From the NCBI GenBank assembly GCA_024277675.1, contig JAJRUS010000007.1:4254-68253 (forward strand): a DNA stretch of 64,000 nucleotides. The letters run 5' to 3'. This document shows positions 5,284 to 43,890 of the stretch, piece by piece. The DNA comes from a bacterium (GTDB lineage Bacteria > SZUA-182 > SZUA-191 > JAJRXT01). The position numbers and the translations under genes are program-made. A model generated the notes under the pieces. It was not told the DNA's origin, did no database searches, and worked only from the letters and a program-made list of their open reading frames with translations. Every line of letters begins with the position of its first letter. Positions within the stretch are counted from its first letter, which is position 1.

Positions 5284-8200
5284 ATGAAAAGAACTATTGT
5301 GTCGACTATATTGATTTTATTATCAGGCTCTTTGGTGGTTACCTCTGTGGCGGGTGCGGTTTGTGAGATGAAAACCGATTATACCCCAGGCGTAGCATGC
5401 GCCTCGAGTACGGTGGTGGTGAATAATGACGCCGAGTTAGACGCTTATCTGGCAGACTTTGGCTTTAATGGGAACAAATACCAGAACCTGAAGCTTAACT
5501 ACGATGTGACCAGAGCAAATATTGATATCCACTCCCCCTGCAAGATTACCTTGAAGGACAATGTCATCTTGAGTGGGGATAGCATCTGTCTGGATGGCCG
5601 AAATGGGGTGGTTGACGATAACGGTTACACCGCCAATGCTGCCCAGTTGAGCGTATTATCTGAGTTGGGAGATGCTCATTTCGGCCGGGGATCGGTTATT
5701 AACGCTAATGAGTTGACCCTCAGCGCCTGGAAGAAGGCCAAAATCGGCATTAACTCCCAGGTTAATGTGACTGGGGCGGTTAAGCTGGTTTCCAGCGGTG
5801 ATCTCGCCAGTAGCGATGCTATTATCCGACAAGGCTCCACCGTAAATGCCGATAGCTTACTGGTACAGGCTCCCAGGGGCGCCACGCTTGGGCTAAGTAC
5901 CGATATTAATGTTAGCGGTAAGGTATCGGTCATTTCCACTGGCAGTTATACCGGCAGTCTGGCCAAAATTAAACAGGGGGCTGCTGTCAGCGCTAATAAT
6001 CTGGATCTGATTTCGGACAATAAAGCTGCGCTTGGGTTAAGTACAGTAATAGCCGCTGCCGACAATTTTACCATGCAGGCCGCCTCCCCGGATAAATGTT
6101 CCATTGCCGGTTCAGCCAGCATAAATGCGGGCAGCACCTGGGGGAATTGTTTACAACCCCTGGTGGTGGATATAACCTCACCGGCCGCCGGCTCACTTAC
6201 TAACAGCCCGACCATTAGCGTATCGGGCACAGTAACCGACCTCAATGCCTCAGTAACCGTAAACGATATTCCGGCTACAGTAGCCAATACCGGCTTTAGC
6301 GTCGACAATGTTCCTTTAAGCGAAGGGCCGAATACCATCACCGCCACGGCTACTGATCCGGCGGGCAATACCAGCGCCCATTCCATCAACATTACCCTGG
6401 ATACGATAATTCCCGACATCGGCATAAGCTCGCCGGCCAATGGTTCCACCATAGATAGCAACCTTCCGCTTGTCATCATGGACTACAGCGATGCAGGTGC
6501 GGGAATAGATAGCGGCAGCTTTCAAGCCAGCATAAACGGAGTGGATTATACCGCCTCATTTACAGTTACCGCCACTCAGGCTAGCTATCAACTAATCGCC
6601 CCCCTGCCCGAGGGAGCTAATACAGTTACCGCCGGCATATCAGATCTGGCGGGTAATTCAGCCTCAACCACTTCCAGCTTCACCGTGTCTATTGCTCCTC
6701 AGGCAACCGAATCTTCCGGTTTTATTCATGGTCAAGTATTTGATGTTCAAACAAAGTTGCCCATTGAAGGAGCCGTGGTTACTGTAGCGGGCATAGGGGG
6801 TAATATTTTATCTGATTTAGAAGGCAAATTCGTATTTCCTACACCAGGCACAGGCATCTATAAACTTAAAATAACCAAAGATGGATACAATTATAACCAG
6901 CGACTGGCCGAGGTGGTTTCCACCCGTGACACAACAGTAGCCCCGGCATATCTGCTGGCCATCGACACTACCGATATGGTAATCGCCTCCCAGGGAGCCT
7001 CACTTACCAACAGCACCGGCGATTTGCAAGTGGATATTCCACCTGACAGCTTACCCTATGATGCTGAGGTACACTTAACATTAATCACAGAACCGGAGCA
7101 ATTACCCAGTCCATTGCCTGACGGTTATGCCTTTATCAACTTTTTCTATGGCGAGCCTTCCGTTCAATTCGATCCACCGGCCACAGTACGTTTTTATAAC
7201 CGGTTGGGCTTTGAACCGGGGGCTACATTAACCATTGTGTTCTGGAATCGCCAGGAATTAGTGTGGGAAGAACGGGGGATGGCCTGGGTTACTGAGGATG
7301 GACAATGGATTCAGGGTGACTGGCCAAGTTTCAGTTCCGGGGGGATAACAATCCGCCCGATATACCCGGAAGTACCCTGCCCTGATCCCAATGACCCGGA
7401 TTGCCCCCCATGCGATCCGAACGATCCGAATTGTGGAGAAGAATGTGTTCCCGGTGACCCAGATTGTCCTGATTCCTGTCTGAATCCGGGGTTCGCCGGC
7501 AGTGGTTTTGTGTCGACTAATTATGCCCTCCCCAGTATAAATGCATTAGGAGCTTCAAGTGGGCTGCGATTAACTTATAACAGCAATGCAGCTTACCCCA
7601 CGGTGAGCATTCCCGCTATTGTCTATCCCAGAGGCACCTTTGCCATAACTCCTGATTCAATAAACATAGCTATAGAAGCGGGAGGGGAAAGTATAGAGAA
7701 AAAATTTGCATACAACAATCAGGTATCCCGCCAGACTTATTTACACACTCCCAGGGTAGCGGTTGATGGACAAACCAAATGGTTTGCCAGCGGCACATAC
7801 CCATATAATGTTAAGATTTCCAACGATTATAAACGAAACGAATACGCTGTTATTATATATAGCATATTCAATGGCGTACCTTTTGAGCCTGTAAGAACCG
7901 CAACTTATGTCATTGAGGATAAACCGGTCTCCTATTCAAGGGAGGTTTCAGGCAGATATGCAGTGGTTAATCACATAGCGAGCCCCTTCGGTTCCGGGTG
8001 GACAATACAGGGATTATCCAGGTTACACTTTGACCCAAATGACCCTGGTGGAAATATCAGTACGGTAATGCTTGATGAAGGCAGTGGAAATTTCAGGGTT
8101 TATACGCTGGTTGAGAATACTCCGATCACCAGTGAAGCAGTATATACTTCTCAAGCTGGCGATTTTTCCACTTTAATGCGCCATTCAGATGGTAGTTATA

Positions 8201-11200
8201 CCAGAAAAATGCATAAAGGCGGTATGGTATATAACTATAACCATCAAGGGTTGCTTACTTCAAAGGTTGATAGTAATGGGAATACGACTAATTACATTTA
8301 TGATGCTCAAGGTTTATTGATTAGGATAGAAAACGCAATCGGGGGCGCTACAAACTTCAGTTATGATGCAAACGGACATATATCTGATATACAAGATGCA
8401 GCTGGGAGGGTAACGCAGTTTAATGTTGATACTTTCGGTAACCTGGTATCTATCACCGCCCCTGATGGAAATGCCACTTCTTATGCCTATGATGCTAACC
8501 ATCTGCTTACTACTGAACAAAACCCCAGGGGAGCTTCTACTCAGTATGTATATGATAATTATGGCCGCCTCAAACAAACCATATCTCCTGCCGGAGCCAC
8601 AGAACAACTTTATCCCGATTATACTAATGGATTAATCAATGAACTGCCTGGTAACGGTACCTTAGCCACCCATTTTAATTTTTCAGATGTTGAATCAAGG
8701 GCAGTAAATGCCCTGGGGCAAACAAAAACCGTTAAGACTAATACCAAAGGCTTTGTTATCCAGAAAACTGATGCATTAGGAAACATCACCTCGTATGAAA
8801 GAAATTGTGCTTGTGGCGCACCGACAAAAATCACTTATCCCAATGGCAGGGTGGTTACCATGACCTATGACGCTAATGGTAACCTGTTAACCAGAACCGA
8901 AGAAGCAACTGGAGCCGCCACTACTTATACCTATGAACCAGACTTTAATCAGGTAGCCAGCATAACCGATCCACGGGGTAATGTTACCCAAATGACCTAT
9001 GATGCTAACGGCAATTTAATCCAAACCACCGATGCCCTGGGTAACATAACCAGTATGTCATACAACGCTCAGGGACAACTTACCCACATCACCAACGCCT
9101 TAAATGAGACCACTATTTTCAGCTATAACCCGGCTACCGGCAATCTGCTATCTATCACTGATCCACTGGGTAATGCGACCAGCTATACCTATGATGCCGC
9201 CGGTAATCTGCTGACCAGTACCGATGCTGAAGGCCATATCACCAGCTACACCTATGATGCTATGAATCGCCTGCTCAGGGTTACCGATTCAAATAATAAT
9301 ACCACTAACTATGAATACGATGCTACCGGCAACTTGATCAAGGTTACCGATGCCAAGGGGCAAATTACACAATTTGCATACAATGAAGATAATATGTTAG
9401 TCAGCGCGACTAATCCCCTGGGCTATACCAGAATATACAGCTATGATGCTAATCGCAACCTGGTTTCTACCACTGATGCAGAAAGCCAGACCATAAACTA
9501 CGCTTATGATGCCTTGAACCGATTGATCCAAAAAACTCTGCCAGATAACTCAACCACTGACTATAGATACGATGAGGCAGGAAACCTGCTCAACATCTAT
9601 GCTCCGCGCACCCTTATCGTCATGGAATATGATCTGCTCGGCAGGCTTAAATCCTCATCTACTCTGGTTAATACCAGGGATGATGAGTTTGCCAACTATG
9701 TGTCTTTACCTGCCAATACAGTAATCAGTTCCAATGATACAAGTTATGACAATACCGATATTCTGATTGTAGATGGAGCGGTGATAACCATTGATGGGAC
9801 ACATACCTTTAAAAATATAGCCATAATCAATGGTGGCAAATTAACCCATTCGGCAGGCTCTCATCTGGATATTACGGCTGATGCTGTACTAATCGACTCT
9901 ACCAGCAGTATAGATATGAGCGGCAGAGGCTATGCGCCGGGTTATACGCTGGGCAATAGCGCTATTGGGGCCAGTTTATATGGCGCCGGCGGCAGTTATG
10001 GCGGTGTAGGGGGCATATACTCTCCCACCGGCAGTGTTTCCAATGACGTATACGGGGATTACCGTAACCCGAACGAGTTAGGCAGCGGCAGTAGTTATTA
10101 TGGCAATACCGGCGCTGCCGGTGGGGGGCTGGTGCGCATTGTGGCCAATAGCCTAACCCTGGATGGAACAATTAACGCTAACGGCAATACATCCACGTAT
10201 GGCGGCGGCGGATCGGGCGGTGGCATCCGACTGGATGTGGGTACTATGTCCGGTGTAGGTTCGATTAATGCGCTGGGCGGTAATGGTGGCAATCGTGGCG
10301 GCGGTGGCGGCGGACGAATCGCCCTTTATTATACAGCGGATATGGCTGGTTTTACAGGAAGCATCAGCGCATATGGCGGTACAGGAAACTATGGACATGG
10401 TGGAGCGGGTACGGTTTACATGAAATCCACCGCACAAGCTTATGGCGATTTAATAGTAGCTAACAACGGCAAGAACACCGCTGACTATTCAACCCCATTG
10501 CGGACTATAGGTTTTGGTTATAGCGACAGCATCATCTATAGTCCCGCCAGCGGCCAGAGCACGCTCAGTGATGCAACAGCAGCCTGGCCGCAACCGGATG
10601 CAGCTATGGGTGCGTTGGGGTTAATCGGTTTAGAGCTTAATCCCAATACGATTCAATCCCAGACATATACCGTGGCAAATAATACTGCCACCACTATCAT
10701 CGTTGACGGTAATATAACCTCAGTCGCTACATCAGGCGATGCCTATATTGGGGAATATACTTTTGATAACCTGTATGTTCGTGGTAAAGCCAGGCTTTCG
10801 ACTGAAGACGATATCTATGTTTTGGGTACTATAGAGGTAGATAATGCCAGCCTGAAAGCCAATGCACTGAATTTTCCCGACAGCAATCAACTCCAAGCCA
10901 TTAACGGCATTATTGAGGTAAGCGGGCCATTGTTTGAGGGTCATGCTAATGTAATCCTGGATGGGGATAGCCTTACCGTAAATAGCATTACCGGCGTGGA
11001 TTCGCTGGCATTAACCAATGGCGCTGTGCTGAAAAGTTTTTATCTGGCGCCATTGGAAATAAGCGTTGCTGATTTAACCATCGACTCTACCAGCAGCATA
11101 GATGTAAGCGGCCAGGGTTATGCCGGGGGGTATACCTTAGGTAATACTACTGATGGGGCCAGTTTATATGGCGCCGGCGGGAGTTATGGCGGCCGGGGCG

Positions 11201-30979: not shown

Positions 30980-32026
30980 ATGCCCTATAAGATACTGGAC
31001 AAGCAAAACTATCAAGTCTTTGTAGCAAACCTGGCGGCAGCGGAGCCGGTAATCGCACCGGTACCCAAAGAAAGCCGATTTGCCTTATCCCGTATAACAA
31101 ATCCGGCACAACTGGCCGATCCTGAAGCATATATACCCACCCTCTTACCCCACAAAAAACACCTTTTTCCCGCCAAAGAAAACTTGCTTAAATTTAAATT
31201 AGAAGACCAACCCCGGCTGACTCCGCAAATGGAAGCCCCTCAGCAGGTGTTTCTGGAGGTAAGACCCTGCGATATAAACGGTATCCGTCAATTGGATATG
31301 TTTTTTCTGGATGATATTTCAGATGAGCATTATGCCCGGCGCCGGCAGGCGACAAGTATCATTGGCCTGGATTGTAACGAACATTGTGATGGACACTGTT
31401 TTTGTGAGAGTGTGGGGGGCTTGCTGGTTGATAAGGGCTACGATTTATTTTTCAGCGATCAGGGCAAATATTACATGGTGAGTATCGGAACCCAAAAGGG
31501 GGCGCTGCTGCTTGATAAGTATGCCACCCCCCAGGAAGCCTCCGAGGAATTAATCACCGCTTATAAACAGCTACAAACCCAGAAACTATCCCGATTCCCC
31601 ATACGTTTTAAGGGGGATTTATACAGTGTTCCGCTGCTTTTAACCGGCAGTTATGACAGCCCGCTATGGGCTGAATTGGAGAAGATCGACCTGGCCTGCG
31701 GGGCCTGCAATGTAACCTGCCCCACTTGCAGTTGTTTTGATGTGCTGGATAAGCTGGAACTGGATTTGGTCAGCGGTAGCCGCCGCCGTAACTGGGATGG
31801 CTGTATGCTTCAAGGTTTTGCCGAAGTTGCCGGTGGGGGGAACTTTCGCCCTGAACGGGCACAGCGGGTACGTCACCGCATATACCGCAAGTTCAAATAT
31901 CAGATGCAGAAATATGGGGAACCCTTCTGCGTGGGCTGCGGACGTTGCATCCGCTCCTGTCTGGTGGGCATAAACCCTTATGAAATATTAAACCGTTTGT
32001 TTGAAGAGGCGGGAAAAGGCGCATGA
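30980..32026 (+). CDS. Group-3 NiFe hydrogenase beta subunit (Fe-S, sulfhydrogenase HydB/AsrA-like)
   Basis: Cys clusters CxxCxxCxxxC are present (CGACNVTCPTCSC, CVGCGRCIRSC). It precedes the gamma, delta and alpha genes. Confidence 0.7.
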   Translation: MPYKILDKQNYQVFVANLAAAEPVIAPVPKESRFALSRITNPAQLADPEAYIPTLLPHKKHLFPAKENLLKFKLEDQPRLTPQMEAPQQVFLEVRPCDINGIRQLDMFFLDDISDEHYARRRQATSIIGLDCNEHCDGHCFCESVGGLLVDKGYDLFFSDQGKYYMVSIGTQKGALLLDKYATPQEASEELITAYKQLQTQKLSRFPIRFKGDLYSVPLLLTGSYDSPLWAELEKIDLACGACNVTCPTCSCFDVLDKLELDLVSGSRRRNWDGCMLQGFAEVAGGGNFRPERAQRVRHRIYRKFKYQMQKYGEPFCVGCGRCIRSCLVGINPYEILNRLFEEAGKGA

Positions 32027-32865
32027 GACCGGAACAACTACATCCGCAAAGTATATATACACCCAAGCCGGCGTGCATAGTTAAGACTCAAGCGCTTACC
32101 GCCAACGAGCGCTTGTTTCGGCTGCAATTTGTAGACGGCAGTCCCCTGGGGCATCAGCCGGGCCAGTTTGTGGAGGTATCGGTGCTTGGCGTGGGGGAGG
32201 CCCCGCTCACCATTACCTCATCCCCCCGGCAGCCGGACTATTTTGAACTGTGTGTGCGCCGGGTAGGTAATGTTACCAACGCCTTACATGAGTTGAGCGA
32301 GGGGGCGGTGCTGGGAATTCGGGGGCCGCTGGGCCGGGGTTTTCCGCTGGCTGAATTTCAGCGGCAAAACTTGTTGATTATAGCCGGTGGCATCGGGATT
32401 ATTCCCTTGCGGCCGGTGATTGAGCATGTTTTGTCGGAGCGGGATAAGTTTAAGGACATAACTATTCTGTATGGGGTGAAACACCCCGATGAGCGGCTCT
32501 TCCGGGATGACATAGCTTGCTGGGAGGGGCGGGAGGATGTGGATTTCCGGCTTACGGTGGATCGCCCGATGGAGGGCTGGGCCGGGCATGTGGGGGTGGT
32601 GACCACCTTTTTTCCCAAACTTAACATTGATCCGCTAAATACCGTTGCCATAATCGTCGGCCCGCCTATAATGTATAAGTTTGTTTTGCTGGGACTTTCG
32701 CATAAGGGCTTTGCCGATCAGAAGGTTTTTATGTCCTTTGAACGCCGGATGAAATGCGGGGTGGGTAAATGCGGGCATTGCCAGATAAACGGGGTGCTCA
32801 CCTGCCGGCAGGGTCCGACCTTCTCTTATGCTGAGATCAAGGACTTGCGGGAAGCGATTGGGTAA
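32023..32865 (+). CDS. Hydrogenase gamma subunit (FAD/NAD(P)-binding, PyrK/HydG-like, 2Fe-2S)
   Basis: A ferredoxin-NADP-reductase-like fold is present. The C-terminus carries the 2Fe-2S motif CGVGKCGHCQ. Its start overlaps the beta-subunit stop (ATGA). Confidence 0.75.
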   Translation: MRPEQLHPQSIYTPKPACIVKTQALTANERLFRLQFVDGSPLGHQPGQFVEVSVLGVGEAPLTITSSPRQPDYFELCVRRVGNVTNALHELSEGAVLGIRGPLGRGFPLAEFQRQNLLIIAGGIGIIPLRPVIEHVLSERDKFKDITILYGVKHPDERLFRDDIACWEGREDVDFRLTVDRPMEGWAGHVGVVTTFFPKLNIDPLNTVAIIVGPPIMYKFVLLGLSHKGFADQKVFMSFERRMKCGVGKCGHCQINGVLTCRQGPTFSYAEIKDLREAIG

Positions 32866-32880
32866 ATTCGATAAGATTAA

Positions 32881-33726
32881 ATGAAAAACAAAAAAAACAA
32901 ATCACAAATACGAAATAGTTCTCCAGAAATTTTCAAACAAAGCAAGGAGCTAATAAAGTCTGCAAATAAAACGGTTAAAAATAGCAGGCTTAATAAAAAC
33001 AATGACATAGTTGTCAGTGCTGATTCTCGGCTGGAATTCTGTACCGCTATTTTATATTGTAAAGGGATTAAGATTTTTAAACATATTTACTCCCTTTGCT
33101 TAGAAGGTGCTGGTGATTGTGCGGCCATATTAGCTAGGACTCTTTTTGAAACTTTGGTGAACTTGCTTCTGATAATCAGAGGTGACCGTTTAGCCGAGGA
33201 TTTTATTGATTTTTATTTCATAGAAGCATTTGATTGTTTTAAAGATATCAAAAAACACTTTGAGGATTTAGAACTATCGGAAGATGAAGAAGATTTTATG
33301 ATGTGGGGATATAATAAAGTGGTAGCCAGATTTAAAAATAAAAGCGGGAGGACAAAAAAAGACTGGTATAAAAAAGAAAGCACGGCTGATAAAGCTAGTG
33401 ATGTTGGTTTGTCAAGGCATTATGATTTAGGATACAGGAGATATTCAGCGATTGCGCATTCTTCGCCTGAAGCTATGTTTGACCATATAAGAGCAAACCA
33501 TAATGAGAGTGAAGTTCGTCTTTCTTATCAGCCTTCAGAGCAGTATATAAAAGAGATTTTACCGGAAAGCAGTAAATACTTCATCTTGATATTGTATGTT
33601 TTTGTTAAGATTTTTAAACTTAATGTGACAGAGGAACTAAAAGCTGATATGAAAATACTCAAAGATAATGAAGATTATCAAGAATGTTTTAAAAAGAATG
33701 AAATTCTTGCTGAGAACTTTTTATAA
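32881..33726 (+). CDS. Hypothetical protein of 281 aa, AT-rich, inserted between hydrogenase gamma and delta genes
   Basis: The ORF is about 32% GC against about 50% background. Its N-terminus is Lys/Asn-rich. No recognisable domain was found. It sits where gamma and delta are normally adjacent. Confidence 0.5.
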   Translation: MKNKKNKSQIRNSSPEIFKQSKELIKSANKTVKNSRLNKNNDIVVSADSRLEFCTAILYCKGIKIFKHIYSLCLEGAGDCAAILARTLFETLVNLLLIIRGDRLAEDFIDFYFIEAFDCFKDIKKHFEDLELSEDEEDFMMWGYNKVVARFKNKSGRTKKDWYKKESTADKASDVGLSRHYDLGYRRYSAIAHSSPEAMFDHIRANHNESEVRLSYQPSEQYIKEILPESSKYFILILYVFVKIFKLNVTEELKADMKILKDNEDYQECFKKNEILAENFL

Positions 33727-33739
33727 AATGATTTTTTCT

Positions 33740-34169
33740 TTACTTTCTTTGCGTGCCCAAAGAAAGTAACAAAGAAACGGCACCCTGTGCGCCTTTGACC
33801 CTGACGGGTCGCTGCGGGGACTTGAATTTTTCGCTCCCCAAAAGCTATCGCTTTTGGGGCCCCGCCGAGCGGTCCGCAAACTTGCTCGCTTATACTCGCT
33901 TCAGACATGCGAACCTACGGCCCAAAAATTCTGCGCCTCCTCGCTCAAAGCCGCAATGGGGTCATACTTGGAATTTAGCGTAAGCTAAATTCCAATAAGG
34001 TGCGCATTGGAGGTTTTAAGGAGTAAGCCAGGGATTTTTGCGTTAAGAAATTTTAATGTCTGAAGGCGAAGCCTGAGTTTTAAAATTTTAGCGAAAAACC
34101 GCAGCAGACGACTATAAAACCGACACAGCGCAGTTCTTTTGCATACTTTTCTTATTAAAGAAAAGTATG
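33740..34169. repeat. Hairpin-rich noncoding segment bounded by two related palindromes (MITE-like element or structured RNA)
   Basis: The left palindrome is TTACTTTCTTTG-cgtgcc-CAAAGAAAGTAA (33740-33769). The right palindrome is GCATACTTTTCTT-atta-AAGAAAAGTATG (34141-34169). Internal perfect hairpins are CCCCAAAAGC-tatc-GCTTTTGGGG (33836-33859) and GGAATTTAGC-GTAA-GCTAAATTCC (33970-33993, a GNRA-type loop). Confidence 0.4.
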
Positions 34170-34244
34170 TCGGGGGTTAGGGGGCGAAGCGCCCCTATAA
34201 GTAATAGGGGGTCTTCCTTAATAATAAGGTTGGATAAAACACAA

Positions 34245-34976
34245 ATGAAACCAAAGGTTGCTTTTTTTGATTTTACCGGCTGTGAGGGCTGTCAGCTACA
34301 GGTGATTAGCCTGGGGGATGAGCTGTTGCAGGTGCTGGGGCTGATTGAGGTGGTCAATTTCAGAGAAGCCATCAGCGATAAGCGGGATGATTATGAGCTT
34401 GCCATTATCGACGGGGCAATATCTACCGAGGAAGATATAAAGCGTATTAAGGCCATTCGCAAGCAGGCTAAGGTTTTGATTACCATCGGAGCCTGTTCGT
34501 CTTTGGGTGGGGTTAATTGTATCAGGAATTTTCACCCCAAGGAATTTCTACTAAAGGCGGTATATGGAGAACAGGCGCAGCATTTCGATACCATTCCCGC
34601 CCGCCCGATCTGGGCTGAGGTGCCGGTGGAATATCAGGTGCGGGGCTGTCCGATTAACCAGGGGGAGTTTTTAAAGGTTATTACCGCGGTACTTACCGGC
34701 CGGCAACCGGTCATTCCCAATTACCCGGTATGCATGGAATGCCGCAGTAAAGAGAATGTTTGTTTGTTTGATAAAGGCATGACCTGCCTGGGGCCGGTAA
34801 CCAGGGCCGGCTGCGGGGCGATATGCCCATCTTATGGTAACTTCTGCTGGGGCTGCCGCGGTTTGGTGGATGATCCCAATGAAACGTCCGAGAAAGAGTT
34901 GCTCAAAAAACACGGGCTTACCCCGGAACAGGTTATAAAGGCCTTCCGCTTTGGCTGCGGTTTTTTAGAGGGATAG
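34245..34976 (+). CDS. NiFe hydrogenase small (delta) subunit
   Basis: The N-terminus MKPKVAFFDFTGCEGCQ carries the proximal-cluster Cys. It is NuoB/MvhG-like. The frame also opens at 34167, inside the hairpin. Confidence 0.8.
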   Translation: MKPKVAFFDFTGCEGCQLQVISLGDELLQVLGLIEVVNFREAISDKRDDYELAIIDGAISTEEDIKRIKAIRKQAKVLITIGACSSLGGVNCIRNFHPKEFLLKAVYGEQAQHFDTIPARPIWAEVPVEYQVRGCPINQGEFLKVITAVLTGRQPVIPNYPVCMECRSKENVCLFDKGMTCLGPVTRAGCGAICPSYGNFCWGCRGLVDDPNETSEKELLKKHGLTPEQVIKAFRFGCGFLEG

Positions 34977-35107
34977 CGAAATGTATAACCGGTTTAGCAG
35001 AAACGGGAGCCTCCGCTGTTGGCCCAAAGGGCCAACAGGAAGCGGGGTCAGCAAGCGGGACTTTGTCATAGTTAGTCCAGGCCCTGCCTGGTTGGAGACA
35101 ATAAAAG

Positions 35108-36394
35108 ATGCATGATTTATCTATAGAATCTGAATTTGTAACCCGGGTGGAGGGTCACGGCCATATAAAAATAAAGGTGGCTGATGGAGAAATAAAAGAT
35201 CTCAGGTTTGAGGTGCCCTAAGCGCCCCGTTTTTTTGAGGTTATGTTATGTGGGCGAAATCATCAGGAGGCGTCATTGATTTCTTCGCGCATCTGCGGTA
35301 TCTGTGCAGTAGCGCATAGTAGCGCTTCACTGCGGGCCACCGAGGCGGCGCTTGGCATAACCCCTTCCGAGCAAACCGTACTGTTGCGCAAGTTAAATTT
35401 AGACGGGGAGATGTTGCAGAGCCATATTTTGCACATCTATTTTTTGGCGGCGCCCGATTTTCTGGGGGTGGGTAGTGTAATCCCCCTGGCCGAGACTCAC
35501 CCGGAGGTGGTAAAGCGGGCTATCCGGATGCGTAAACTGGCTAACGACTTATGCTGTACCATCGGCGGCCGGCATGTACATCCGATTTCCGCGGTTCCCA
35601 ATGGATTTACCAAGCTGCCGGCTATCGAGGATTTATTGGTTTATAAGGATAAGCTGGAACAATCCTTTGAGGATTTAAATGCCAGTGTAGAATTATTAAA
35701 AGGGGTTAAGCTGACGGTGTTTGAGCATCCTACCGAATACATTTGTCTGACCCATCATGATGAATATGCGGTATATTCCGGCGACATATTATCTTCGGTG
35801 GATGGTATAACGCCGCTACCGGAGTATAAACGCAAAATAAATGAGCAGGTAATTTCCTACTCAACCGCCAAGCATGCTCATACAGGTCAGGGCTCATTTA
35901 TGGTGGGGGCGCTGGCGCGTTTTAATAATAATTATGATAAACTGAAACCCCAGGCCAAACAGGTGGCTGAAAGCCTGGGATTATCGCATCCCTGTCACAA
36001 TCCCTTTGCCATTACGGTAGCCCAGTTGGTGGAAACGGTGCATTTTACCGTAGCAGCCATCGAGCGTATCGGGAAATTGGCCGAACAGGGTATTCGGGAA
36101 GAAGATCGCAGCTATAAGATAAAAGCAGGACAGGGAGTGGGAGCAGTGGAGGCCCCGCGGGGCACCCTGTATCATGATTATAGTTATAATAAGGCGGGTG
36201 AGATTACCGCAGCCAATTGCATCATTCCCACCGCCCAGAACCTGGCCAATATAGAGTTTGATATGCGGGCTATACTGCCTGAAATATGGGATAAGCCGCG
36301 GGAGGAGATTACCCTGACGCTGGAAATGTTGGTGCGGGCCTATGATCCCTGTATCTCATGCTCCACCCATATGCTGGAAGTGGAGTTTGAATAA
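35108..36394 (+). pseudogene. NiFe hydrogenase large (alpha) subunit interrupted by an in-frame TAA at 35219-35221
   Basis: The 5' segment MHDLSIESEFVTRVEGHGHIKIKVADGEIKDLRFEVP ends in TAA, then APRFFEVMLCGR...SRICGICAVAHS follows in the same frame. The Ni-binding motifs RxCGxC and C-terminal DPCISCSTH are intact. Confidence 0.8.
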
Positions 36395-40370: not shown

Positions 40371-42302
40371 ATGTGCGGAATTTGCGGGTTTACAGGCTTT
40401 AAGGATGAGGCGCTGCTACGGGATATGACCGATATCTTGAAGCATCGCGGGCCGGATGATAGCGGGGCTTATCAGGATGCCGGCATCTCGCTGGGGCATT
40501 GCCGCTTGAGTATCATCGATCTTCACACCGGGCATCAACCCATACATAATGAGGATCAAAGCCTGTGGGTGGTCTATAACGGCGAGATTTATAATTTCCC
40601 TGAGCTAAAAAAGGATTTATTAAATAAAGGGCATAAGTTCTATACCGCCTCAGATACCGAAGTGCTGGTGCATTTATATGAGGAGTACGGCGACAAGCTG
40701 GCCGATAAGCTAAACGGTATATTTGCCTTTGCGCTGTGGGATAAGCGCAATAAAAAGCTATTGTTAGTCAGAGATCAACTGGGGGTTAAGCCATTATATT
40801 ATTACTTTAATAACGGCATTTTGCTGTTTTCATCCGAGCTTAAGGCCTTATTGTTAGCTACTCAGATAAAGCGCCAACTGGATTTCCAATCGTTACACTA
40901 CTTTTTAAACCTGCGTTTTCTGCCGGGTGAGGGCACCTTATTTTCCGGCATAAAAAAACTGCCCCCCGCCAGCATATTAAGCTACCAGCATCAAACTTTT
41001 AATATACAAAAATACTGGCGGCTTACTCCCCGGATACAAAGTAACCGCCGGCTGGAGGATTATCAGGAAGGCATTGTGCATCATCTGAAACAGGCTATAA
41101 AGCGCCAGTTGATAAGCGATGTGCCGCTGGGAGTGTTTCTTTCGGGCGGCATGGATTCTTCCTCGATTGTGGCGCTGATGAGCCAGGTGACAAGTGCGCC
41201 CATCAACACCTTCTGCATGGCCTTCGGCGAGCCTACCGATGAGCTTACCGATGCTAAGCTTATTGCCAGGCAGTTTAATACCCGGCATCATGAGCTAAGC
41301 ATTGAACCCGACCCCTTAAAATATCTGCCGCAGGTCATCTGGCATGCCGAGGAACCCAAGGTGAACCTGCTGCAGGGGTATCTTATTTCCCGGTTTGCCG
41401 CTCAACATGTAAAGGTGGCGCTGGGTGGTTTGGGCGGGGATGAGCTGTTTGCCGGTTATACCAGCAATCAATTCATTTACCCCAGCCAGACGCTGCAGCG
41501 GCTGCTGCCGCAAATTATCACCCGGCAGGTGCTCTCCCGCTTGAGTTCCCTTATTTTCAAGCTACAGGATAAATCAGGGCTACTGCAATATGATGAATAC
41601 CGTCGCGGATTACAGATGCTGCTTTCCCTGGGGGATAAGGCCCGCTATTATCTCATCCTGCGTAATGTGTGGGATTATGAAGCGGCGAATTATAAGCATA
41701 TATATGCCGACGGCTTACCAATAGTAAATCAGGTAAAAGAACTATACGCTCCCTATTTTGCGGATGCCTCAGCTAATTTCCTAGAGCAGACGTTATTGGC
41801 CGAGCTTCATACCAAACTGGTGGATGATTTCCTGCTGAACGAAGACCGCATGTCGATGGCTAACTCATTAGAGGTAAGGGTGCCGTTTCTGGACCGGGAT
41901 TTAGTGGAGTACGCCTTTAATATCCCAGGCAACCTGAAGATAAAGGGCAACCGCCCCAAGTACATATTTAAAGCCGCCATGACCCCGCATCTGCCAAAAG
42001 CGACATTAAATAAAAAAAAATGGGGTTTCGCCATTAATCCCTATTTTCAATTTAAGAAGGATTTAAAATATACCGCAGAGAGAATCCTCACCCCCAGGCG
42101 AGTAAAAGAACGGGGATTATTCAACTATGCTTATATAAAACAAATCCTGGATTACCCAGCCCATCCCCGTATGCGCTGGCACTATATGCTGCTGTGGATG
42201 CTGGTGGGCTTTGAAATCTGGCACCAGATGTTTATTGACGGCGGGGGAAGCCCCCCCGGGGGGAGCCCCCCCGATTTTGATATTGAGAGTTATTATGAGT
42301 GA
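40371..42302 (+). CDS. asnB: Asparagine synthetase (glutamine-hydrolysing)
   Basis: The N-terminal nucleophile is MCGICGF. The PP-loop is SGGMDSS. The C-terminal tail (GGGSPPGGSPPDFDIESYYE) is unusual and is encoded by GC-rich hairpins. Confidence 0.9.
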   Translation: MCGICGFTGFKDEALLRDMTDILKHRGPDDSGAYQDAGISLGHCRLSIIDLHTGHQPIHNEDQSLWVVYNGEIYNFPELKKDLLNKGHKFYTASDTEVLVHLYEEYGDKLADKLNGIFAFALWDKRNKKLLLVRDQLGVKPLYYYFNNGILLFSSELKALLLATQIKRQLDFQSLHYFLNLRFLPGEGTLFSGIKKLPPASILSYQHQTFNIQKYWRLTPRIQSNRRLEDYQEGIVHHLKQAIKRQLISDVPLGVFLSGGMDSSSIVALMSQVTSAPINTFCMAFGEPTDELTDAKLIARQFNTRHHELSIEPDPLKYLPQVIWHAEEPKVNLLQGYLISRFAAQHVKVALGGLGGDELFAGYTSNQFIYPSQTLQRLLPQIITRQVLSRLSSLIFKLQDKSGLLQYDEYRRGLQMLLSLGDKARYYLILRNVWDYEAANYKHIYADGLPIVNQVKELYAPYFADASANFLEQTLLAELHTKLVDDFLLNEDRMSMANSLEVRVPFLDRDLVEYAFNIPGNLKIKGNRPKYIFKAAMTPHLPKATLNKKKWGFAINPYFQFKKDLKYTAERILTPRRVKERGLFNYAYIKQILDYPAHPRMRWHYMLLWMLVGFEIWHQMFIDGGGSPPGGSPPDFDIESYYE

Positions 42303-43698
42303 ATCTAAGAAAATTGATAAGGAAGTTTTTGGTGAAAAGCTAAAGAATAAAAGAGAAGAAGCTTTGGCAATGTTGAAGAATGACAAGGGAAATTATTTTG
42401 ATGAAGTCCAGATAGGAAATATAAAGTACAAGATATTTGAAAATGCACCTGATGAACTCTTTACAAATGAAACTTCAGAATTATTGCCTGAAGATCCAAG
42501 TAAACCAATACCTGGCGTAAGACATCATTATCCTGCGATTATTATAGAAAGCATAAATTTTTCTTCAAGAGAAATTAAAAGAACGGATTTCTATTTTTGG
42601 TGTTTTCTTGGTAGAGTAAATTTTAAAGATGCTGAGTTTGCTGGTAAAGTACGGTTTGATCGTGCAACATTTTGTGGTGAAGTAAATTTTTCAGGAACTG
42701 AGTTTAGTCAAGGGGTGTATTTCCAACATGCTGAATTCACTGCCTTTGCAAACTTTAGAGGCACATCTTTTCATGGTGATGCAATCTTTGAACGGGTTTC
42801 CTCTGGCCCTGACAGTAAAATGGATTTTATGAGTGCCAGGTTTGAAAAGAAGGCAAACTTTGAAAAATCCCAGTTTTCCGGCGATATGATCTTTGATAAG
42901 GCAACATTTTATGAAACGACATATTTCGGTAATAAAACAACCTATGAGAAAGTTTTGTCATTTAAAAAAGCTATCTTTAAAGAACGCTGTGATCTTGAAG
43001 TTGAAAATTTTGGAGATTTTGTAGGCTTTAGGGGTACAGAGTTCAGAGGGTCACTATTCATAGATGGAGCCAAGTTATGTGAGAACGAGGACAAATTATC
43101 CTTTCCAAGCAAGTTGATTGTTAAAGAAGATGGGAAGGAAAATAAAAAAGAATCAAAAAAAAATATTCTTGCAGTAAAACAAATGTTCAATAAAATCCCA
43201 TCCTATGATGATGAAGACCATTTCTACTACTGGTATAAGGTTTATGAACGGGAGTCCAAATATAAGGATGATGATGGGAATTGGAAAAATAAAAACATTA
43301 TCAATCACTTAATATATTGGCTTTGGCATATAGGGTTTCTTGATAAAATAACCGGCTATTTCACAAAGCCCTGGAGAGTATTTACTGCTATTCCAGGAAC
43401 CATTTTTTTGTTTTGTCTTCTTTATCGCCTACCTTGGTGTTCAATTAACGGCCCCAACGAAACAACTTTATGGGAAAACCTTACATTTTCCCTTAAATCA
43501 ACAGATAATATTATCCTGTTTCTTGAACACTTATTAAAGACCTTATATTTCAGCGCAATAACTTTTGCAACTATTGGATATGGGGATTTTCATCCGGTTG
43601 GTTTTTTGACTATGTTCCTTGCTGCTGTGGAAGGGATAATTGGAGTTTTACTCATAGCCACGTTTCTGGTAACCCTAACCAAGAAAGTGTTATGGTGA
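42295..43698 (+). CDS. Pentapeptide-repeat domain fused to a 2-TM K+-channel pore domain (TIGYGD)
   Basis: Pentapeptide-like repeats are present (NFKDAEFAGKVRFDRATFCGEVNFSGTEFSQGVYFQHAEFTAFANFRGTSF...). The C-terminus is ...YFSAITFATIGYGDFHPVGFL...LIATFLVTL. The gene is very AT-rich. Its ATG overlaps the asnB stop. Confidence 0.7.
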   Translation: MSESKKIDKEVFGEKLKNKREEALAMLKNDKGNYFDEVQIGNIKYKIFENAPDELFTNETSELLPEDPSKPIPGVRHHYPAIIIESINFSSREIKRTDFYFWCFLGRVNFKDAEFAGKVRFDRATFCGEVNFSGTEFSQGVYFQHAEFTAFANFRGTSFHGDAIFERVSSGPDSKMDFMSARFEKKANFEKSQFSGDMIFDKATFYETTYFGNKTTYEKVLSFKKAIFKERCDLEVENFGDFVGFRGTEFRGSLFIDGAKLCENEDKLSFPSKLIVKEDGKENKKESKKNILAVKQMFNKIPSYDDEDHFYYWYKVYERESKYKDDDGNWKNKNIINHLIYWLWHIGFLDKITGYFTKPWRVFTAIPGTIFLFCLLYRLPWCSINGPNETTLWENLTFSLKSTDNIILFLEHLLKTLYFSAITFATIGYGDFHPVGFLTMFLAAVEGIIGVLLIATFLVTLTKKVLW

Positions 43699-43744: not shown

Positions 43745-43890
43745 GAGTCCGATATAAGGACTCATTGATTTTATATGTAGGGGCGGGGCTTGTCCCCGCC
43801 CGTAAATAAGCGGGAGGGGATTAACCCCTCCCCTACAAAAAAACCTACATCCGGGAGGCCACCAGGGCCTCCCCTACAATGGATTCAGGT
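43745..43890. repeat. Array of GC-rich 8-bp-stem hairpins (REP-like)
   Basis: Hairpins are GAGTCC-gatataa-GGACTC, GGGCGGGG-cttgt-CCCCGCCC, GGGAGGGG-attaa-CCCCTCCC and GGGAGGCC-accag-GGCCTCCC. Each of the last two is followed by CTAC. Confidence 0.5.

Follow-up and report, generated by a model that had tools for sequence, protein, structure and literature searches.

What is a single AT-rich gene doing between two subunit genes of a hydrogenase operon? The question is raised by a 64,000-nt stretch of bacterial DNA (contig JAJRUS010000007.1; hereafter the window), in which an open reading frame (ORF) stands between the gamma and delta subunit genes of a predicted [NiFe]-hydrogenase. An earlier note, made from the sequence alone, had taken this ORF for horizontally acquired cargo. 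In the analysis described here, the encoded protein is assigned to the Pfam family DUF5677, and comparison with related loci identifies the gene as part of a lineage-specific insert. The explanation that we favor, with slightly better than even confidence, is that a DUF5677 gene, which may have a role in genetic conflict, was acquired by a group-3b-type hydrogenase operon that itself appears to be decaying.

Results

A Lineage-Specific Insert between the Gamma and Delta Subunit Genes

Relatives of the gamma subunit were scanned in one genome per species, which yielded 80 loci, fetched with up to 6 kb of flanking sequence. In every one of these 80 sulfhydrogenase-type loci, delta directly follows gamma at a distance of 0–132 nt (mostly <25 nt), and none has a gene between the two or a DUF5677 homologue in the fetched flanks. 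The closest relative, a metagenome-assembled genome (MAG; locus L001), is 81–87% identical, and its blastn homology to the window ends at position 32866 and restarts at 34237. The absence of the gene from every relative, together with a spacer of 69 nt in L001 against a block of 1,370 nt here, argues that the insert is lineage-specific and not an accessory subunit. This comparison had been set beforehand as the one that could refute an insertion; with no homologous gene at the site in any of the 80 loci, the claim survived it. Both gamma and delta are complete around the insert.

The ORF lies in the same direction as the hydrogenase genes and begins 15 nt after the stop codon of gamma. Its GC content (32.5%) and GC content at third codon positions (GC3; 29.1%) are the lowest of the 43 long ORFs in the window (z = −2.8 and −2.6, respectively), which agrees with the earlier description of an AT-rich, 846-bp ORF of about 32% GC. 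The flanking hydrogenase genes have a GC content of 50–55%, and in the plot of GC content and codon usage proposed at the time, the sliding-window GC falls abruptly from 0.53–0.60 in these genes to 0.32–0.36 over the ORF. The protein is also Lys/Asn-rich, as had been stated, both residues being enriched about two-fold (Lys, 11.7% versus 5.9%; Asn, 6.0% versus 3.5%), with the excess mainly in residues 1–45. By our own estimate, the chance of a 281-codon open frame in DNA of 32% GC is ~1e-10. Only the ORF is compositionally foreign, because the non-coding tail that follows it is host-like in GC content (46%). Judged from these comparisons, the insert is a lineage-specific and compositionally foreign acquisition. 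The proposal that it was acquired horizontally within a normally contiguous beta–gamma–delta–alpha operon is thereby borne out, and the insertion event itself is an ordinary horizontal acquisition.

The Inserted Gene Encodes a Divergent DUF5677 Protein

Contrary to the earlier view that the protein has no recognizable domain, its residues 57–207 match Pfam DUF5677 (PF18928) with 86.5 bits against a gathering cut-off of 27.1 (E = 2.8e-24). PHROG 27456, whose function is unassigned, matches as well; no NCBIfam family and no sequence relative in the PDB were found for the protein. It meets only itself in a 90%-cluster protein database, and word-indexed protein searches, with the single sequence or a profile, returned the protein itself and a few matches without names or fusions. 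Neither an exact-sequence contig look-up nor tblastn against curated plasmids and phages gave a match. An exhaustive HMMER search of 1.84 billion representatives, in turn, recovered 289 relatives at E ≤ 1e-3, all single-domain proteins of about 190–350 residues (mostly 250–310) and at most 32% identical to the window protein.

In an alignment of 60 sequences, all of which also match the DUF5677 hidden Markov model, only R86, in an L-R-S/T-L-F-E helix, and H193, in an S-x3-H-S/T motif, are invariant, and W162 is conserved in at least 90%. All three are present in the window protein, which belongs to a small DUF5677 subgroup with a C-terminal C-x2-N-x2-L extension. AlphaFold2, run with the family alignment, predicts an all-alpha structure with high confidence (predicted local distance difference test [pLDDT], 94.8; predicted template modeling score, 0.92), for which no viral structural neighbor was found. 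A HEPN assignment based on the local sequence RRYSAIAH was rejected, as its arginine is not conserved and the family consensus at this place is S-x3-H; no HEPN or AbiV family occurs among the Pfam, PADLOC, and PDB profile matches. The window protein is like other DUF5677 proteins in its full-length match, size, single domain, and invariant arginine and histidine, and it differs from them in being no more than 32% identical to any and in sitting inside a hydrogenase operon rather than a mobile element. It is classified here as a divergent addition to a family that is known but lacks an assigned function.

Genomic Contexts and Candidate Functions of DUF5677

Homologues of the gene were found in an island with an integrase, an excisionase-like helix-turn-helix protein, and Fic; next to a large serine recombinase and a TraG-like gene; in runs of small genes without assigned function; and next to a pantothenate kinase gene. 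One homologue (P0005, 31% identical; locus L082, 3035–3916) sits between a pair of aminoacyl-tRNA synthetase genes, overlapping each by 4 nt, and its GC3 is 0.44 compared to 0.57–0.67 in the neighboring genes. These contexts suggest that the family behaves as cargo of mobile elements or conflict systems. They also indicate that, in one subgroup, solitary genes have come to lie within housekeeping operons more than once, L082 being the second such case. According to a 2025 preprint, DUF5677 is significantly enriched beside serine recombinases in defense-rich contigs of Bacillota.

With regard to known defense systems, no PADLOC model matches the window protein at E ≤ 1. Among the 60 aligned family members, six match the model for DitA, a component of the two-gene anti-phage system Aditi (best E = 5.4e-7), and four match the candidate model PDC-S52. 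The DitA matches place DUF5677 and DitA in one superfamily, and the predicted link holds at that level only: the window protein differs from DitA in having neither a match to the model nor a DitB-like partner, with gamma upstream and 518 nt containing stop codons in all six frames downstream. Reviews citing Millman et al. (2022) describe Aditi as found experimentally, with an unknown mechanism and proteins “not classifiable into a known domain family.” The earlier alternatives, a defense protein or a selfish passenger, were thus supported in part: homologues are mobile-element cargo and some family members match DitA or PDC-S52, whereas the window protein itself matches no defense model. A defense or addiction role for it is plausible on the basis of its relatives.

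A Structured Element in the Non-Coding Tail

The stretch between the ORF and delta had been described as 430 bp of hairpin-dense, non-coding DNA. It is non-coding and hairpin-dense, but the length requires correction. Delta starts with the ATG at 34245, as in all relatives, and not with the upstream ATG at 34167, so that the stretch measures 518 nt. Its fold z-scores relative to shuffled sequences are −5.5 on the plus strand and −7.0 on the minus strand. Four of the seven perfect hairpins (stem ≥9 bp) in the whole window lie in the tail and a fifth in the delta–alpha spacer. Two weak plus-strand terminator candidates (33805–33824 and 34192–34210) were noted, with a count of 6 that is not clearly above that in shuffles (2.9 ± 1.8). 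A decayed gene was rejected on account of the stop codons in all six frames, as was a known RNA, the only match to Rfam 15 being lactis-plasmid RNA at 29 bits versus a gathering cut-off of 70 (E = 0.076).

The tail contains one clear copy of a structured element (Table 1). The element begins with an almost invariant module of ~45 nt, GTyACTTTCTTTG-loop-CAAAGAAAGTAAC-CAAAGAAA-GGCACCC, followed by a domain of 160–190 nt that closes directly after GGCACCC. The stems of this domain vary between copies, and an AAACTyGC junction and the AAACTCGCTTCGCTCAGACAG loop are kept despite this variation. Further downstream lies a candidate inverted copy, in which the apical loop (34057–34078) reads, in reverse complement, as a variant of this loop motif and the geometry fits. 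Its similarity to the module is marginal (score of 25 versus 13.8 ± 3.0 for shuffles, with other window sites scoring as high), and the copy is therefore reported as probable.

Copies of the module were also identified outside the window: at 7–14 places, depending on the query, in the second replicon of Ilyobacter polytropus; in 149 large, chromosome-like replicons of a plasmid collection, with 1–18 copies each that are always unannotated (Ralstonia [134], Caballeronia, Burkholderia, Paraburkholderia, Pseudoalteromonas, Ilyobacter, Chitinibacter, and Variovorax); and in 28 metagenome contigs, many from soil (loci among L089 and L091–L118). The module is absent in 5,426 E. coli genomes and 50,697 phage records, and the 20-nt loop sequence has just two matches in 2.9 million viral contigs; the idea of a phage feature was rejected on these grounds. 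Where the loop is copied exactly, the stems that close it are perfect (8–16 bp) and unrelated in sequence. For seven alignable soil copies, RNAalifold predicts 79 base pairs, 17 of which show compensatory double changes, and the fold z-scores of the element reach −12. The compensatory changes indicate that the structure of the element is conserved, as a structured RNA or single-stranded DNA (ssDNA). In addition, the 5′ arm of the module, CUUUCUUUG, can pair with either of two downstream copies of CAAAGAAAG (33758–33785; alignment A3 columns 10–46), with RNAalifold selecting the distal copy and single-sequence folding the proximal one. It is possible that the invariant part of the element holds an alternative-pairing switch.

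The elements are located between unrelated genes in either orientation, and convergent pairs with the modules at the outer ends are common. At locus L112 (5926–7556), two inverted copies 1.6 kb apart flank genes for a Crp-family regulator and a glyoxalase/bleomycin-resistance-like protein; in the related locus L107, the pair is contiguous (11530–11936). The L112 pair may form a composite that carries cargo, or may stem from two separate insertions. A link between the element and DUF5677 was rejected, since no copies occur near any homologue examined. No Rfam family was found in 11 other element-carrying loci, and sequence strings of the element gave no relevant match in the searchable literature; the element appears to be previously undescribed.

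Among known sequences, REP/BIME in E. coli and Correia/NIME in Neisseria are intergenic mosaic repeats or miniature inverted-repeat transposable elements (MITEs). The tail element resembles them as a short, multi-copy hairpin sequence that occurs in either orientation and often in inverted pairs. Unlike these repeats, it has a module that is near-identical across phyla (Fusobacteriota, Beta- and Gammaproteobacteria, and the window bacterium) and stems that covary in an RNA-like manner, with no associated transposase identified and no Rfam family. Tentatively, and with a good deal of doubt, the tail could be seen as a convergent pair of an undescribed cross-phylum element, either a new class of non-coding RNA or an ssDNA-recognized (MITE- or REP-like) mobile element, that may have contributed to the capture or fixation of the DUF5677 gene in this operon.

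Condition of the Hydrogenase Operon

The best NCBIfam matches of the four subunits are sulfhyd_HydB/ShyB, HydG/ShyC, HydD, and HydA, all under the equivalog cut-offs, and the Pfam domains agree. With its beta–gamma–delta–alpha gene order, the operon is predicted to encode a group-3b-type (sulfhydrogenase-like) [NiFe]-hydrogenase. The alpha gene contains an in-frame TAA at a position that is glutamate in 77 and aspartate in 7 of 84 aligned relatives (motif EAPRFFE). The stop codon corresponds to a single GAA-to-TAA change, and the remainder of alpha is intact over its full length. Given its location at a conserved glutamate codon, the hydrogenase may already be dead. The codon is either a recent inactivation, marking a fresh pseudogene, or a base error of the assembly. 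The earlier suggestion that the insert may have a polar effect on delta and alpha is partly overtaken by this nonsense codon, as a loss of hydrogenase function may not hinge on polarity.

The delta–alpha spacer measures 131 nt, whereas in 74 relatives its median length is 1 nt and the longest reaches 76 nt. It has been expanded by hairpin DNA of the same kind, independently of the DUF5677 gene. L001 has extra hairpin DNA of its own, ~140 nt between beta and gamma (L001 4537–4677), which indicates that the lineage gains hairpin DNA in the spacers of the operon independently of the inserted gene. Taken as a whole, the hydrogenase operon appears to be decaying.

Table 1. Coordinates of the hydrogenase operon, the insert, and its structural features in the window
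Feature	Position	Strand	Remarks
Hydrogenase beta subunit gene (HydB/ShyB-like)	30980–32026	+	Pfam Fer4_22; NCBIfam sulfhyd_HydB, 3e-59; syntenic with L001
Hydrogenase gamma subunit gene (FAD/NAD-binding, HydG-like)	32023–32865	+	Intact to stop; aligns to L001 over residues 1–279 of 280
Lineage-specific block	32867–34236	+	1,370 nt; stands where L001 has a 69-nt spacer
DUF5677 ORF	32881–33726	+	Intact, 846 nt, 281 aa, stand-alone; family-invariant R86 and H193, near-invariant W162
Non-coding, hairpin-dense tail	33727–34244	.	518 nt; GC 46%, host-like
Invariant 5′ module	33740–33785	+	Hairpin TTACTTTCTTTG/CAAAGAAAGTAA, then CAAAGAAA-CGGCACCC; 94% identical to Ilyobacter copies
Structured element copy 1	33740–33962	+	Module and multi-branched hairpin domain; covariation in homologous copies
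Copy 1 closing stem	33781–33798 / 33945–33961		
Copy 1 inner perfect hairpin	33836–33859		
Copy 1 apical loop	33878–33908		Variant of AAACTCGCTTCGCTCAGACAG
Perfect 12-bp hairpin	33968–33995	.	GTAA loop; between the two element copies
Probable second element copy, inverted, degenerate	34012–34169	−	Long hairpin 34012–34121; module-like perfect hairpin 34142–34169
Two overlapping GC-rich hairpins	34179–34210	+	Second (34192–34210) terminator-like, weak T-run
Hydrogenase delta (small) subunit gene	34245–34976	+	Oxidored_q6, HydD-like; true start MKPKVAFFDF
Delta–alpha spacer	34977–35107	.	131 nt, expanded; perfect 10-bp hairpin at 35016–35038
Hydrogenase alpha (large) subunit gene	35108–36394	+	NiFeSe_Hases, HydA-like; in-frame TAA at 35219–35221

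Other Sites in the Window

The region 5284–16624 includes two RHS-repeat genes of very large size (2,176 and 1,118 aa), which contain internal repeats of ~1.19 kb (9866–12901), together with two GC-poor ORFs that follow them, one without a Pfam or PADLOC family (15290–16126) and one encoding an HTH_3 regulator (16253–16624). This arrangement resembles a polymorphic-toxin locus that carries foreign cargo downstream. Ranking second in the window for low GC content (0.357), the ORF at 42211–43698 codes for a pentapeptide-repeat protein that has an ion-channel domain at its C-terminus; this gene, too, may have been acquired. The spacer at 43780–43879 holds three consecutive short GC-rich hairpins (GGGGCGGGG...CCCCGCCC, GGGAGGGG...CCCCTCCC, and GGGAGGCC...GGCCTCCC), an array that differs in type from the hairpins of the tail.

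Discussion

Based on the comparative data, a promoterless, stand-alone DUF5677 gene would have been acquired horizontally and inserted into the gamma–delta spacer in one uncultured lineage. Since only 15 nt and no terminator separate it from gamma, the gene would be transcribed by read-through from the hydrogenase promoter. A sigma-70-like match (TTGCCA-16-TATAAT, 11/12) is present at 32645–32672 in the 3′ part of gamma, ~210 nt ahead of the DUF5677 start codon; this match may be fortuitous or may mark an internal promoter for the inserted gene. No promoter-like σ70-type site was found on the plus strand between the DUF5677 ORF and delta. The product may act as an effector in genetic conflicts, of an anti-phage or addiction type, to which we assign somewhat less than an even chance, and might be a metal-independent nuclease using the R86/H193 pair, which is more doubtful. 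The tail would be separate from the foreign gene and comprise one clear and probably a second, inverted copy of the structured element, plus extra perfect hairpins. If the hydrogenase has dropped out of selection, as the nonsense codon in alpha suggests, the decaying operon would tolerate the insert or even aid its persistence.

This arrangement is reminiscent of free-standing selfish genes or “morons.” The free-standing homing-endonuclease genes of T-even phages sit between conserved genes, and the DUF5677 gene is likewise a single AT-rich ORF placed exactly in a spacer, with no recombinase of its own and with presumed expression from host transcription. It is unlike homing-endonuclease genes in that the protein has no nuclease family signature and there is no evidence of homing, close relatives offering no pairs of empty and filled sites for comparison. 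AbiV, a HEPN-family RNase from Lactococcus lactis (PDB 9bj5/9bj6/9bj7) and the single-protein abortive-infection effector of a lactococcal anti-phage system, offers a second comparison: DUF5677 shares with it an all-alpha fold and a stand-alone gene, and Arg/His chemistry is plausible here too.

A number of observations weigh against this explanation, the first group concerning function. Many AbiV chains are the best structural neighbors of the model in the PDB, and these matches are weak (E = 0.56; template modeling scores of 0.25/0.38). An Rx4–6H motif is not conserved in the 60-sequence alignment, in which the invariant R86 lies 107 residues upstream of H193; with no sequence-profile link to AbiV either, HEPN membership is not established. 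No defense model, DitA included, matches the six closest relatives (P0002–P0007) at E ≤ 1, and their neighbors do not match DitB. In the 2025 preprint mentioned above, the single DUF5677 ORF tested, with six phages, was not among the five protective ones. As for the insertion and its setting, expression of the gene by read-through is itself inferred, and the TAA in alpha could be a consensus error of the metagenome assembly. No recombinase gene was seen near the operon, and no transposase marks the insertion. A target-site duplication around the whole block, as expected for a transposon or MITE insertion, was rejected as not significant: the longest word common to both junctions is 8 nt (AAATGAAA, comprising the two start codons), a length reached by 53 of 500 shuffles. 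An integron gene cassette was rejected as well, as there is no attC box pair of R″ (RYYYAAC) and R′ (GTTRRRY); a single GTTRRRY (34229) has no partner box, and no integron integrase was found among the Pfam-scanned ORFs, which cover part of the window.

The main rival sees nothing more in the gene than a selfish or neutral passenger, a remnant of mobile cargo whose function (anti-defense, element maintenance, or regulation, for example) benefits mobile elements and not this host, and which has been kept only as the operon is not under selection. Homologues inside integrative and conjugative elements, the tested homologue without phage protection, the lack of any defense model for the window protein, and an operon with a nonsense codon in alpha and both spacers swollen by hairpin DNA would all fit such a passenger. 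An intact ORF that retains the family-invariant residues and is modeled with a pLDDT of 94.8 is unexpected for a decaying remnant, however, and relatives within housekeeping operons, whose stop and start codons overlap those of adjacent genes, give an impression of domestication. We consider the passenger a real possibility, but an unlikely one.

The remaining alternatives have little left to support them. That the protein is the DitA component of Aditi gains some credit from the 6 of 60 family members with DitA matches, but neither the window protein nor its six nearest relatives match the model even at E ≤ 1, there is no second gene beside it, and the neighbors of close homologues do not match DitB, so that membership is effectively refuted and very improbable. 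A chimeric assembly without any real insertion, which an uncultured organism as the evident source (the protein is on record from one 69-kb contig only) and the abrupt jump in GC might suggest, is more improbable still: the two junctions lie precisely within the spacer between complete gamma and delta genes that keep the order and orientation seen in all relatives, an outcome not expected of a chimeric join, and the tail has host-like GC. Least probable of all is a conserved accessory subunit or regulator of this type of hydrogenase. Such a protein would explain the co-orientation and the distance of 15 nt from gamma, but it is refuted by the absence of the gene from all 80 related operons, including the one at 81–87% identity, and is at odds with the foreign codon composition and with homologues in unrelated contexts.

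An acquired DUF5677 gene with a possible conflict role in an apparently decaying hydrogenase operon remains the explanation that we favor. The locus strengthens the case that members of one DUF5677 subgroup recurrently settle as lone GC-poor genes in conserved operons, as seen here and in L082. DUF5677 also appears to be tied to DitA at the superfamily level, and the invariant Arg/His pair provides a testable catalytic hypothesis for both. The most interesting by-product of the analysis is the structured element in the tail, a widespread, covarying element missing from Rfam, whose near-identical 45-nt module across distant phyla needs explaining.

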